From Parcubacteria group bacterium (GTDB lineage: Bacteria; Patescibacteriota; Minisyncoccia; UBA6257; Colwellbacteraceae), in NCBI GenBank assembly GCA_041649615.1, contig JBAZMT010000002.1, positions 10,017 through 74,016 on the forward strand: a DNA stretch of 64,000 nt, in the 5' to 3' direction. This document shows positions 3,813 through 41,863 of this stretch, piece after piece (the stretch's first letter is position 1; each line of letters starts with the position of its first letter). A program made the translations under genes and the position numbers. A model generated the notes under the pieces. That model made no database searches, was not told the DNA's origin, and saw only the letters and a program-made list of their open reading frames with translations.

Positions 3813-4187
3813 CTAGAGAACAAATTTTCTGCCTTTGTATTTTTTAGCTTCAATGATAAAGGCGTTATCGTTTTTTGAACTGTGTCTTATAGAGTGACAA
3901 TTAGCACAGAGGAGAATGCATTTATCTAGTTCCTTTTTAATAACTTCCCATTTTTTATTAGCAACATTTCCAATGACAAAATCTTTTTTATTATGATTAA
4001 CGTGATGGAATTGAAATGCTGCTTGATTTCCTTGCCATCCACAATCGACACATCTTCCTCCTAGTAGTTTGATGGCGGCAAGCTTGGTTCTGTATCTTCT
4101 TATTTTTGTATTGCATGATCCACATCGGGTTCGCATTTTGTTTTGGTAATCCTTAAATTTATTACCACACAGCTTACATATGCGCAT
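3813..4187 (-). CDS. HNH endonuclease (free-standing, homing-endonuclease-like)
   Basis: '...HHVNHNKKD...N...LLCANCHSIRH' HNH motif with a Cys-rich zinc-finger N-terminus. Paralogous to the ORF at 41296-41769. Confidence 0.75.
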   Translation of the reverse strand: MRICKLCGNKFKDYQNKMRTRCGSCNTKIRRYRTKLAAIKLLGGRCVDCGWQGNQAAFQFHHVNHNKKDFVIGNVANKKWEVIKKELDKCILLCANCHSIRHSSKNDNAFIIEAKKYKGRKFVL

Positions 4188-4286
4188 GTCAATAGTATAA
4201 CATATTATGTTCTACCGTATTGGATTGGTAATCTTGAAATTAATTAATTATCTGTTAATATACGCAAGTATTCTTCAAGAATATAA

Positions 4287-4575
4287 GCCGCGATAGCTCA
4301 GTGGTAGAGCGCATCCCTCAAGTTCAACTTCGGGGCCTTCTGCAGTAATGCGGATTGAATAACTGGGTGAATTCGGAAAAGGTTCTTAGCTAGCGCTAAA
4401 AATAATTCCGAGCCAAGCTCAAAAGGACACAGGTTTTTGAGAAGGTGTAGAGACTAGCAAGTGAGCTCCAACAATAACCTTGCATAAGCGCCCGGCTCCC
4501 TTTAAAGGGAGATGATATAGTCCGGATATCCTCTGGAAGAGGATGGCGTCGGGGGTCCGATTCCCTCTCGCGGCA
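4287..4575 (+). tRNA. trnF: intron-containing tRNA, most likely tRNA-Phe (GAA); exons about 4287-4318 and 4536-4575; CCA not encoded
   Basis: Exons join into a 72-nt cloverleaf: GCCGCGA-TA-GCTCAGTGGTAGAGC-G-CATCC-CU|GAAGA-GGATG-GCGTC-GGGGG-TCCGATT-CCCTC-TCGCGGC-A. Body is Phe-like (discriminator A, GCGUC variable loop). The anticodon call rests on the inferred splice junction, which could be off by 1 nt. Confidence 0.7.
4319..4535 (+). ncRNA. group I self-splicing intron (subgroup IC3-like) inserted in the tRNA anticodon loop
   Basis: 5' exon ends in U and the intron ends in G. Internal 'CGAGCCAAGC' and 'GAAGGTGTAGAGACTAG...GATATAGTCC' match the conserved core (P7 and neighbouring elements) of the Azoarcus tRNA-Ile and cyanobacterial tRNA-Leu group I introns as I recall them. 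GGGG near the intron 5' end can pair with exon CCCU as P1 with a G.U pair. No ORF inside. Confidence 0.8.
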
Positions 4576-4581
4576 CAAAAT

Positions 4582-4621
4582 GTAACAAAGAACTCCGATT
4601 GCAATCGGAGTTCTTTGTTAC
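4582..4621. repeat. 40-nt perfect palindrome (18-bp stem, 4-nt loop) between tRNA genes
   Basis: GTAACAAAGAACTCCGAT-TGCA-ATCGGAGTTCTTTGTTAC; no T-tract follows. Confidence 0.7.
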
Positions 4622-4643
4622 TAATATTTAAAAGTTTTCGCTT

Positions 4644-4718
4644 GCCCTCGTAGTTCAATGGATAGAGCAGCACACTCCTAACGTGCTGATGGAGGTTCGA
4701 TTCCCCCCGAGGGCACCA
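4644..4718 (+). tRNA. tRNA-Arg (CCU), CCA encoded
   Basis: Acceptor GCCCTCG/CGAGGGC, anticodon loop CUCCUAA, T-loop TTCGATT; ends ACCA. One mismatch in the T stem. Confidence 0.7.
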
Positions 4719-4731
4719 AATTTTTGTTTTG

Positions 4732-4802
4732 TCGGGCTGCCGGGAGTTGAACCCAGACCTCATGCTCCCAAAGCATGTATACTACCGCTATACTACAGCC
4801 CG
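4732..4802 (-). tRNA. tRNA-Pro (UGG); D-arm/position-26 region irregular
   Basis: Reverse complement has a clean anticodon arm CATGC-TTTGGGA-GCATG (U33, G37), T-arm CTGGG-TTCAACT-CCCGG and acceptor CGGGCTG/CAGCCCG. The D region is 1-2 nt short of canonical. Confidence 0.6.
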
Positions 4803-4831
4803 GTGTGGTTTGTAGCGGCATTATAACCGCG

Positions 4832-4903
4832 TACCCCGAGAAGGAATTGAACCCTCATTTACTCCTTAGAAGGGAGTCGTTCTATCCGTTGAACTATCGG
4901 GGC
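4832..4903 (-). tRNA. tRNA-Arg (UCU)
   Basis: Reverse complement GCCCCGA-TA-GTTC-AACGGATA-GAAC-G-ACTCC-CTTCTAA-GGAGT-AAATG-GAGGG-TTCAATT-CCTTC-TCGGGGT-A. Confidence 0.8.
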
Positions 4904-5013
4904 AAATAAACTCCTATAGACAATAGAAGTTTTTGGTTAAAAATTCAATTTTATAGACTCAACGCAGAACGTTTGCTAAAATTGTTTGGTATCTAACTTC
5001 TGCTCGGGTTGTC

Positions 5014-5943
5014 ATGATTCTCCAAATCTTAATTTTTGCCGCCTCACTTTTTTTGGTTGTTCAAGGAGCAACGCTTGCCACAAAATACTCCGCTAAAGTC
5101 GCGGAGCGTTTTAATCTTTCCCAATATATTGTCGGATTTATTATTGTCGCCTTTATTTCCATTCTTCCCGAGACGGTCATTTCCATAAGTTCGGCCATAA
5201 GGGGAATGCCTGAATTCGGTTTGGGGACGATATTCGGTTCAAATATCGCCGATCTGACGCTTATTTTCGCCATAATGACGATAGTGGCAGGTAGAGGACT
5301 TAAGATAGAGAGCAAAGTACTTAAGGATGTTCGCTTTTATCCTTTTCTAATAATGTTGCCGGTTATATTCGGACTTAACGGCCATTATTCTCGGCTTGAA
5401 GGGATAGCGCTTATAGTAGCCGGAGTATTCTTCTATTACTTGTTATTTAAAAGAGAAGAAAAAATGGATGCATATCACAGCGGCGTAGGCAGTGTGAAAA
5501 ATTTCTTGTTTCTGGTTTTCGCCATGGTCATATTGCTTTTAGGATCGCAATTTACGGTGAATTCCGCGACTGAAATCGCAGAAGTGCTAAATGTAACGCC
5601 AGTGCTTATCGCCATGCTTGTCGTGAGTATTGGAACGACAATGCCGGAACTTTTTTACTCATTGAAAGCCGTAAGGAAAAAAGAGGACGGTCTTGCCGTT
5701 GGTGATATTTTGGGAACGGTAATGGCGGACGCGACAATCGTAGTGGGCGTAATTGCCTGCATAAGTCCGTTTTATTTTCCGGCAAAGATAGTGTATGTGA
5801 CCGGGACGTTCATGGTTATCGCTTCATTCTTCTTAATGAAACTAATACGTTCCGAACGCGTTCTTACGCGGCTTGAGGGATTTTTGCTTCTTGCTTTTTG
5901 GATAGTTTACGCCGTTATAGAGTTTCTGGTGGGCAGGAATTGA
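5014..5943 (+). CDS. Ca2+/cation antiporter (CaCA family, YrbG-like Na+/Ca2+ exchanger)
   Basis: About 10 TM helices with duplicated alpha-repeat motifs ('ILPETVISISS', 'GTTMPELFYSL'). Confidence 0.75.
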   Translation: MILQILIFAASLFLVVQGATLATKYSAKVAERFNLSQYIVGFIIVAFISILPETVISISSAIRGMPEFGLGTIFGSNIADLTLIFAIMTIVAGRGLKIESKVLKDVRFYPFLIMLPVIFGLNGHYSRLEGIALIVAGVFFYYLLFKREEKMDAYHSGVGSVKNFLFLVFAMVILLLGSQFTVNSATEIAEVLNVTPVLIAMLVVSIGTTMPELFYSLKAVRKKEDGLAVGDILGTVMADATIVVGVIACISPFYFPAKIVYVTGTFMVIASFFLMKLIRSERVLTRLEGFLLLAFWIVYAVIEFLVGRN

Positions 5944-5982
5944 TTTGGCGAGAATTTATCCATACAATAAATCCGCTAATAT

Positions 5983-6058
5983 GGTGTCTATAGTGTAACG
6001 GTTAGCACTAGAGTTTGTGGAACTCTCGGTACGGGTTCGAATCCCGTTAGACACCCCA
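5983..6058 (+). tRNA. tRNA-His (GUG) with G-1 and encoded CCA
   Basis: G-1 + GTGTCTA...TAGACAC-C-CCA; anticodon arm AGAGT-TTGTGGA-ACTCT. Confidence 0.9.
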
Positions 6059-41775: not shown

Positions 41776-41858
41776 GCCCGGGTGTTGGAATGGTAGACAA
41801 GCGACACTTAAAATGTCGTGGAGGCAACTCCGTGTGGGTTCGATCCCCACTCCGGGCA
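41776..41858 (+). tRNA. tRNA-Leu (UAA), type II
   Basis: GCCCGGG..., anticodon arm CGACA-CTTAAAA-TGTCG, variable arm TGGAGGCAACTCCG, T-arm GTGGG-TTCGATC-CCCAC, discriminator A. Confidence 0.85.
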
Positions 41859-41863
41859 CTAAA

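Follow-up and report, generated by a model that had tools for sequence, protein, structure and literature searches.

Evidence for a P9-less group I intron in the anticodon loop of a Parcubacteria tRNA-Phe(GAA) gene beside an HNH endonuclease gene

Introduction

What interrupts a tRNA gene at positions 4287-4575 of a 64,000-nucleotide stretch from an uncultured Parcubacteria group bacterium (assembly GCA_041649615.1, contig JBAZMT010000002.1; hereafter the window), and which tRNA would the gene specify once the interruption is removed? An original prediction, made from the letters without database searches, saw two tRNA halves here, separated by an IC3-like group I intron in the anticodon loop, with tRNA-Phe(GAA) as the most likely host. 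Our analysis leads us to conclude, with a probability of about 90%, that the locus is a single tRNA-Phe(GAA) gene carrying a 217-nucleotide (nt) group I intron, devoid of an open reading frame (ORF), between U33 and G34.

Results

The joined exons make a tRNA-Phe(GAA)

The two halves were estimated to lie about 217 nt apart, and the distance is exactly that (4319-4535). When the exons are joined in silico, ARAGORN folds the spliced sequence into the cloverleaf of a tRNA-Phe(GAA), and the computed U33/G34 junction reads ...CAUCCCU/GAAGAGGAUG.... The product has the anticodon GAA, a class I variable loop and A73, and it resembles intronless tRNA-Phe. Beyond the anticodon loop, the 3' exon supplies the 3' strand of the anticodon stem, a 5-nt variable loop, the T arm, the acceptor 3' strand and the discriminator A (4575); CCA is absent from the DNA of the gene.

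Because the intron starts with CAAG and the 3' exon with GAAG, several choices of boundary close a 7-nt anticodon loop. A cut after U33 leaves CU-GAA-GA, which is Phe, and a cut 1-4 nt later leaves CU-CAA-GA. Among these choices, only the U33/G34 boundary combines a U at -1, here U4318 as the last base of the 5' exon, with a G at the end of the intron (omega-G). What the prediction had read directly, namely a 5' exon ending in U, an intron ending in G and exons that rejoin as a cloverleaf, is confirmed, and so is its reading of a tRNA-Phe(GAA) whose anticodon loop contains a group I intron.

The intronless tRNA-Phe(GAA) of a syntenic relative, locus L130, is identical to the spliced product at 66 of 72 positions and reads CU/GAAGA without interruption; four of the six differences make up two compensated pairs of the anticodon stem. 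L130 and L131 share with the window a cluster of tRNA genes for Phe, Arg, Arg, Pro and His, and the HNH protein encoded nearby has 83% identity to that of the window. The cluster (Phe, Arg(CCU), Pro(UGG), Arg(UCU), His(GUG)) occupies 4287-6058 in the window and 1291-1887 in L130. Since the window has the intron and the tRNA-Phe of L130 does not, presence of the intron is polymorphic between near relatives. The anticodon stem of the window, CAUCC/GGAUG, is that of the intron-bearing locus L040 and not that of L130, a match that co-conversion, or co-evolution with the guide sequence, could explain.

The intron covaries within its helices and with both exons

We aligned the window with 37 further Phe(GAA) 33/34 genes using MAFFT (alignment A1), with helices defined from the window sequence; for the pair count, P3/P7 was taken as a pseudoknot and P10 was scored as a helix of its own. 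Over the 52 pairs of the intron, 95.6% of cells are paired, and 29 pairs show changes on both sides. Sliding the 3' partners by 1-3 columns as a control left 34-53% paired, and none of 500 shuffles reached any measure. The cloverleaf, which spans the intron, is 99.7% paired in these 38 homologues, with 13 compensated pairs.

The internal guide sequence (CUUCGGGG, 4328-4335) covaries with both exons, in P1 and in P10. All 38 homologues keep the U.G pair of P1; the helix is 95.8% paired, three of its pairs covary with the anticodon stem, and its variants (CCCU/GGGG, GACU/GGUC, GAUU/GAUC) follow that stem. In the window, P1 is extended by AAG (4320-4322) with CUU (4328-4330). The P10 pair with exon position 37 turns from G-C to A-U where the exon reads GAAAAU instead of GAAGAG.

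Inside the core, P2 is 96.1% paired with compensatory changes in 6/6 pairs, and its loop is GNRA throughout the Phe family; P3 is 100% paired (2 pairs compensated, 5 invariant) and P4 99.6%. P5 is present in the single-sequence minimum free energy (MFE) fold, and is 63% paired in a gappy region of the MAFFT alignment where this hairpin of variable length is misaligned. A P7.1-like hairpin between P7 and the 3' strand of P3 (P3') is 91.6% paired, with 3/5 pairs compensated, and carries a conserved 17-nt loop, UGAGCUCCAACAAUAAC. As UGAGYCCCAACAAUAAY (window 4461-4479), this loop is near-invariant over 38 species and recurs in IA1/IA2-labelled Asn introns. Its conservation suggests a tertiary contact; no tertiary partner for the loop was found. 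The intron combines the P1 U.G wobble and guide with omega-G and P10, and with a P3-P8/P4-P6 core that includes the P3/P7 pseudoknot.

Wherever the window departs from the family consensus inside a helix, pairing is kept. A7-U66 and A4377-U4407, the latter replacing a family G-C, are compensated on both sides, and A4378 converts a family G.U to A-U by a one-sided change; the unpaired departures are G4525 in J7/9 and C55 in the T loop. All family-invariant positions are retained. The MFE fold recovers P1, P2, P3, P4, P5, P6, P8, the hairpin at the intron tail described below and three tRNA arms (z = -2.1). A fold from P1 to P9 had been proposed as a check: P1 to P8 are recovered, covary or, in the case of the invariant P7, are paired throughout the family, but there is no P9. 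Boundaries, homology and covariation, the last for every variable helix and for the exons, are all directly visible in these comparisons.

A hairpin across the 3' splice site stands in place of P9

In 19 of the 38 Phe family members, among them the window, only 8-15 nt lie between P7 and omega-G, and P9 is missing; the remaining members have a P9 with a GNRA cap. In the window, the place of P9 is taken by a hairpin across the 3' splice site (Table 1), whose exon strand corresponds to tRNA positions 36-42 and whose loop consists of omega-G, G34 and A35. The members with a GAAGAG exon form a subfamily of 22 that includes all 19 P9-less ones, and in it the tail complements the anticodon-stem 3' strand (exon positions 36/37-44). 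Tail and stem change together by lineage: AUCCUCU/AGAGGAU in the window, and elsewhere UCAGCUUC/GAGGCUGG, UUCGCC/GGCGAG and GACGC/GCGUC. Contiguous tail pairing averages 6.5 in the 22 members, versus 3.96 +/- 0.20 for shuffled tails, and no excess was found in the 16 members with a GAAAAU exon, all of which have P9. In the P9-less members (the window and 18 loci of A1), it is the last 5-9 bases of the intron that pair with the anticodon-stem 3' strand.

We infer that the tail hairpin substitutes for P9/P9.0, showing omega-G and G34 in a 3-nt loop beside P10. This pairing of the tail in P9-less introns appears to be new.

Table 1. Positions of the features discussed, in window coordinates
Feature	Position	Strand	Description
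HNH endonuclease gene	3813-4187	-	124 amino acids; N-terminal Cys4 zinc-ribbon-like motif and HNH
Promoter-like site	4234-4261	+	TTGAAA-16-TAATAT, TG before second hexamer; 26 nt upstream of tRNA 5' end; consensus scan only
5' exon of tRNA-Phe(GAA)	4287-4318	+	32 nt, GCCGCGAUAGCUCAGUGGUAGAGCGCAUCCCU; acceptor 5' strand, D arm, anticodon-stem 5' strand, C32, U33
P1	4315-4335	+	exon CCCU 4315-4318 with GGGG 4332-4335; U4318-G4332 wobble at 5' splice site
Group I intron	4319-4535	+	217 nt, ORF-less; starts CAAG, ends CCUCUG; omega-G 4535
P2 hairpin	4339-4354	+	4339-4344 with 4349-4354; GNRA tetraloop GUAA 4345-4348
P3 5' strand	4363-4369	+	CUGGGUG; partner 4489-4495
P4 enclosing P5	4373-4411	+	P4 4373-4378 with 4406-4411; P5 4382-4390 with 4395-4403
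P6 hairpin	4418-4441	+	4418-4424 with 4435-4441; 7/7 pairs compensated, 97% paired
P7 5' strand	4450-4456	+	G4450, bulged A4451, GACUA 4452-4456; partner UAGUCC 4518-4523
P7.1-like hairpin between P7 and P3'	4457-4483	+	GCAAG 4457-4461 with CUUGC 4479-4483
P3 3' strand	4489-4495	+	CGCCCGG
P8 hairpin	4496-4511	+	4496-4501 with 4506-4511; 6/6 pairs compensated, 80.5% paired
J8/7 and P7 3' strand	4512-4523	+	AUGAUA and UAGUCC; invariant block GAUAUAGUCC
Hairpin across 3' splice site, in place of P9	4528-4544	+	tail AUCCUCU 4528-4534 with exon AGAGGAU 4538-4544
P10	4536-4539 with 4328-4331	+	GAAG with CUUC; 100% paired
3' exon	4536-4575	+	40 nt, GAAGAGGAUGGCGUCGGGGGUCCGAUUCCCUCUCGCGGCA; anticodon GAA 4536-4538, G37, A38
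Terminator-like hairpin	4582-4621	both	perfect 18-bp palindrome with T-rich sequence on each side; consensus scan

Standard scans miss or misname the gene

Under permissive thresholds, the Rfam model RF00028 (Intron_gpI) matches 4309-4544 over its full length (model 1-253) at 48.5 bits, with an E-value of 1.6e-11 in a local search and 2.8e-9 over the whole window, well outside what chance would produce. The prediction had proposed such a scan as a check, and the outcome is mixed: the match is full-length but remains below the gathering score of 50, and an Rfam scan at gathering thresholds returned nothing at the intron locus. According to Williams (2020), the seed of RF00028 contains no bacterial introns. 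Default ARAGORN reported 13 tRNAs in the window, the tRNA-Phe gene not among them; with introns allowed (ARAGORN -i) it calls the gene tRNA-Leu(CAA) i(34,217). Rfam matches with low E-values nearby, to mir-43_2, a rimP leader and plastid untranslated-region families, were dismissed as chance; they fall on the terminator-like hairpin or on neighbouring tRNAs.

The intron resembles IA rather than IC3 introns

The prediction had called the intron IC3-like on the strength of core sequences that it matched to the Azoarcus tRNA-Ile and cyanobacterial tRNA-Leu introns. The strings it quoted are present, once each in the window (CGAGCCAAGC at 4409, GAAGGTGTAGAGACTAG at 4441, GATATAGTCC at 4514), and IC3 introns do share them, but so equally do IA1/IA2-labelled introns, so they are not diagnostic. 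Indeed, in the supplement of PMC13011429, tRNA introns of both labels carry CCGAGCCAAG...GAAGGUGYAGAGACU. The two kinds differ after P7: in IC3-labelled introns P3' follows directly, whereas IA-labelled introns and that of the window have a hairpin between. The P7.1-like hairpin is found in IA1/IA2-labelled tRNA introns and is absent from the IC3-labelled ones examined, and the distance from P7 to J8/7 is 57 nt in the window versus 35 nt in the one IC3-labelled intron where it was measurable.

Comparison of a profile hidden Markov model of the Phe family with labelled tRNA introns gave the same picture. The profile matched the published Doudnabacteria Phe intron over its full length at 160 bits and IA1/IA2-labelled introns, again at full length, at 65-89 bits; the match to IC3-labelled introns covered P3-P6 only (26-31 bits), and that to an IA3-labelled Phe 31/32 intron of Elusimicrobiota was short (12 bits). 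We rejected the IC3 label: the P7.1-like hairpin separates P7 from P3', P9 is absent, the profile match to IC3-labelled introns is limited to P3-P6, and the closest relatives are not IC3. The extra pairing that IA introns have between P7 and P3' is present, though as one hairpin and not two. By hairpin and family profile, we would place the intron with the IA1/IA2-like bacterial tRNA introns. None of the Patescibacteria tRNA introns was assigned to IC in PMC13011429.

Likenesses to the classical IC3 introns (Azoarcus tRNA-Ile, cyanobacterial and plastid tRNA-Leu(UAA), cyanobacterial tRNA-fMet 33/34) are nonetheless evident in the anticodon-loop site, the small size and the GNRA-capped P2, and the cyanobacterial tRNA-fMet intron even has the 33/34 position of the window's. 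IC3-labelled examples are also near-identical to it in the P4'-P6-J6/7-P7 sequence (CCGAGCCAAG...GAAGGUGUAGAGACU). The classical introns differ in having P9 and in lacking a P7.1-like hairpin.

The Phe(GAA) 33/34 intron is common in Patescibacteria

The core motif GTAGAGACTAG-N40-70-GATATAGTCC, searched for in species-representative genomes, retrieved at least 120 loci, whose host tRNAs were resolved by ARAGORN with introns allowed together with the U-1/omega-G rule. Among the 120 loci listed, almost all of them in Patescibacteria metagenome-assembled genomes (MAGs), 37 are tRNA-Phe(GAA) genes interrupted at 33/34; the rest are mostly Asn(GUU) or Asp(GUC) genes whose intron lies at 35/36, and a few are Tyr 35/36, Met 33/34 or Leu(UAA) 34/35. 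The Phe(GAA) intron was found in 38 further metagenomic loci. Together these make at least 75 loci besides the window, and the intron is common in Patescibacteria. The window's own tRNA-Leu(UAA) gene (41776-41859) is uninterrupted, although genes for this tRNA are where group I introns of bacteria and plastids classically reside. The reduced-genome host of the original prediction looks right, the relatives that we found for the intron and for the adjacent HNH gene being almost all from Patescibacteria MAGs. The prediction overstated how uncommon the host and position are: besides these loci, the combination is in Table 1 of PMC13011429.

That paper (Nakagawa et al. 2026, mSystems, PMC13011429; preprint 10.1101/2025.07.03.662931) surveyed 95 complete Patescibacteria genomes, and its Tables 1 and S3 give a Phe (GAA) 33/34 intron, with its sequence, for Doudnabacteria GCA_016699995.1. 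This intron shares with the window's the host tRNA, insertion point, U-1/omega-G, P7.1-like hairpin and lack of P9, and is 69% identical to it over the intron (211 vs 217 nt); it differs in organism and in its anticodon stem/guide, GCCU/GGGC against CCCU/GGGG. Intron type and position are thus already published, and the window is a new example. The paper mentions neither an HNH gene beside tRNA-Phe nor pairing of the tail with the 3' exon. In the complete genome GCA_016699995.1, tRNAscan-SE, ARAGORN and tFind each find one tRNA-Phe gene, and Table 1 credits ARAGORN and tFind with calling the intron-bearing one; that genome thus seems to have no tRNA-Phe gene other than the intron-bearing one.

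Sister introns in Patescibacteria tRNA-Asn-type genes share the core motifs GUAGAGACUAG ... GAUAUAGUCC, which is why the motif scan retrieved them. They differ in their tRNA, in a site two nucleotides further 3', in having P9 and in carrying their HNH gene, if any, inside the intron. IA1/IA2-labelled Asn 35/36 introns of other phyla have the P7.1-like hairpin, as the window's does. More broadly, Williams (2020) had already raised the number of known settings for tRNA introns from 4 to 21.

An HNH endonuclease gene adjoins tRNA-Phe

Next to tRNA-Phe, and divergent from it, lies an HNH endonuclease gene whose ATG is 99 nt from the tRNA 5' end. The protein matches PF01844 (24.1 bits, cut-off 21.4) and the phage family phrog_2255, 'HNH endonuclease' (92 bits); searches of PDB and NCBIfam with it gave nothing informative. 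An exact look-up of the 124-residue sequence found no match because the source gene call uses a shorter start (107 residues). The family comprises at least 394 clusters of about 124 residues, the closest 120 at 65-85% identity, and the named ones among these are Patescibacteria.

The position of the gene is regular. Six clusters sampled by exact look-up were all divergent from a tRNA-Phe(GAA) at 80-115 nt, with an intron in 4/6, and in metagenome loci with enough upstream sequence the HNH gene adjoins tRNA-Phe in 63/63 cases, 38 with the intron and 25 without. Over the loci examined (L002, L011, L036, L040, L123-L215) the distance is 75-153 nt and some 60% have an intron, while the genes outside the pair vary (FtsH, L19, RecG, MazG). 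Seen from the intron, the association is looser: only 4 of the 37 Phe-intron loci of the genome scan have the HNH gene. Between the syntenic loci L002 and L071, which have 76-83% DNA identity, the HNH cassette is a clean indel, lying between a shared gene of 230 codons and the tRNA 5' end.

Relatives of the protein, at 35-49% identity, are intron-encoded in 13 loci, nearly all of tRNA-Asn(GUU) type, with introns of 510-596 nt (L112, L017, L070, L068, L044, L043, L018, L033, L052, L084, L024, L109, L073). Others are free-standing directly upstream of five Asn-type tRNA genes with short ORF-less introns (L091, L117, L088, L063, L048). Because both arrangements occur, 'captured' and 'free-standing' states of the endonuclease exist within one intron family. 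PMC13011429 reports HNH genes inside introns and not free-standing ones. Together these features suggest that the window's gene is probably a free-standing gene of homing-endonuclease type linked to tRNA-Phe, and the linkage appears to be new.

In 64 loci the HNH start codon follows 4-8 nt after a conserved motif, GGTAGARC-N5-7-TATGYTATACT. In the window its site is at 4188-4232 on the minus strand, the 45 nt before the HNH ATG, and includes the palindrome AACATA-T-TATGTT. The motif looks like an extended -10 promoter for a nearly leaderless mRNA. In intron-free HNH-linked tRNA-Phe genes we found no altered anticodon loop of the kind that might signal immunity, CUGAAGA being present in both sets; as 25 of the 63 genes are intron-free with this same loop, the idea of the intron as a shield is weakened. 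Viral contigs yielded only distant HNH relatives (33-54% identity) and no sign of a phage-borne locus.

Signals flanking the tRNA gene

Consensus scans placed a promoter-like site upstream of the gene and a palindromic hairpin downstream of it (Table 1). The hairpin sits between tRNA-Phe and tRNA-Arg(CCU) and looks like a bidirectional terminator.

Discussion

How would this gene give a tRNA? Along the standard group I pathway, P1 would form as the exon CCCU pairs with the guide GGGG, setting U33 in the U.G wobble. Free guanosine, bound in P7 at G4452-C4522 beside the bulged A4451, would attack the phosphate after U4318; we take this pair to be the putative guanosine-binding site from general knowledge of group I introns. 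Omega-G would then occupy the site while P10 holds the 3' exon, and the freed 3'-OH of U33 would join G34, yielding a 72-nt tRNA-Phe(GAA) to which CCA would be added post-transcriptionally. On this model, P1 would borrow the 5' strand of the anticodon stem, and the intron tail would hold the 3' strand that is thereby freed. Catalysis by the intron and the role of the tail hairpin are predicted from its architecture.

Several observations weigh against a functional, self-splicing tRNA-Phe gene. The intron has 12 nt after P7 and no P9; its P1 is short, with four exon pairs and a three-pair extension containing a C-C mismatch; P7, although 100% paired, is invariant in all 38 homologues, making covariation uninformative there; and the RF00028 score misses the gathering cut-off by 1.5 bits. 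The T loop (4556-4562), UCCGAUU, carries C55 in place of the U (pseudouridine 55) that almost all tRNAs have; among the 38 homologues only the window and L062 have this C. Our view spans 64 kb of the genome, and a second tRNA-Phe gene could lie outside it. Lastly, the published in vitro assays were of Asn and Asp introns only (PMC13011429). The missing P9, a condition shared by half the family, together with the short P1 and the Rfam score just below cut-off, would suit an intron that is real but has lost autonomous splicing along with P9 and needs a protein cofactor or an RNA chaperone. Some group I introns do depend on protein helpers, for example CYT-18 or maturases. However, the P9-less form is kept in many species with a covarying substitute pairing, and no maturase-type gene is evident; HNH proteins are, to our knowledge, not known as maturases. 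Moreover, Patescibacteria Asn and Asp introns of similar architecture self-spliced in vitro (PMC13011429), and we regard dependence on a helper as unlikely.

A more drastic possibility is that the gene is a decaying pseudogene whose intron is no longer spliced, with an intact tRNA-Phe gene elsewhere in the genome. The unusual C55 would fit such decay, and the intronless gene of the close relative L130 shows that the intron is dispensable in this lineage. Yet a decaying gene would hardly retain all family-invariant positions and pairing at each helix departure, or stay flanked by a promoter-like site and a terminator-like hairpin; neither ARAGORN nor an Rfam-type whole-window scan found another tRNA-Phe in the window, and the intron-bearing gene is apparently the sole tRNA-Phe of the complete Doudnabacteria genome. 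We consider decay very improbable. Least credible of all is the tRNA-Leu(CAA) that ARAGORN -i names, which would follow if the splice boundaries lay 1-4 nt further 3', as the CAAG and GAAG starts allow while still closing a 7-nt loop. Such boundaries would put C, A or G at -1 and, in two of four cases, A at omega; the variable loop has 5 nt, unlike that of bacterial tRNA-Leu, which is a class II tRNA with a long variable arm. The intronless orthologue reads GAA, 37/37 homologues resolve to GAA at 33/34, and the covariation of P1 and P10 fits U33/G34 only. A tRNA-Phe(GAA) gene split by a group I intron at 33/34 remains the reading that we prefer.

Does the neighbouring HNH gene make this intron mobile? 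Circumstantial evidence, namely the fixed position in 63/63 loci, the clean indel and the intron-encoded relatives, allows the possible, though doubtful, proposal that the HNH gene homes to tRNA-Phe of Patescibacteria and makes up, with the ORF-less Phe 33/34 intron, a mobile unit of two parts spread by collaborative, or trans, homing. The pattern resembles free-standing, collaborative and intronless homing as known for phage T4 mobE with the nrdB intron (PMC2790892) and cyanophage F-CphI with the psbA intron (PMC6083498; review PMC3984707), in that the same HNH endonuclease family also occurs inside related introns and the gene is a discrete cassette, present or absent. It differs from these phage systems in that the window's gene is on a bacterial chromosome and has a tRNA gene as its host. 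Conservation of the HNH protein and of its promoter-like motif could equally mean a domesticated function. The tRNA introns of Patescibacteria have been inferred to be largely immobile because they lack internal endonuclease genes (PMC13011429). Homing, if true, would contradict that inference and would for the first time extend a pathway known until now from phages to a tRNA gene on a chromosome, and the HNH relatives in and beside tRNA introns would represent the 'before' and 'after' states of endonuclease capture.

For annotation, default ARAGORN and Rfam gathering thresholds do not see this gene, and allowing introns misnames it tRNA-Leu(CAA); because default scans miss the intron-bearing gene, genomes like that of the window would seem to have no tRNA-Phe. 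For the biology of the group, the window adds a case to the tiny Patescibacteria genomes that keep ribozyme introns in their tRNA genes. It would also offer a natural P9-less group I variant in which the anticodon-stem strand freed by P1 acts as a clamp on the 3' splice site, and an HNH gene tied to tRNA-Phe across many lineages reopens the question of intron mobility.

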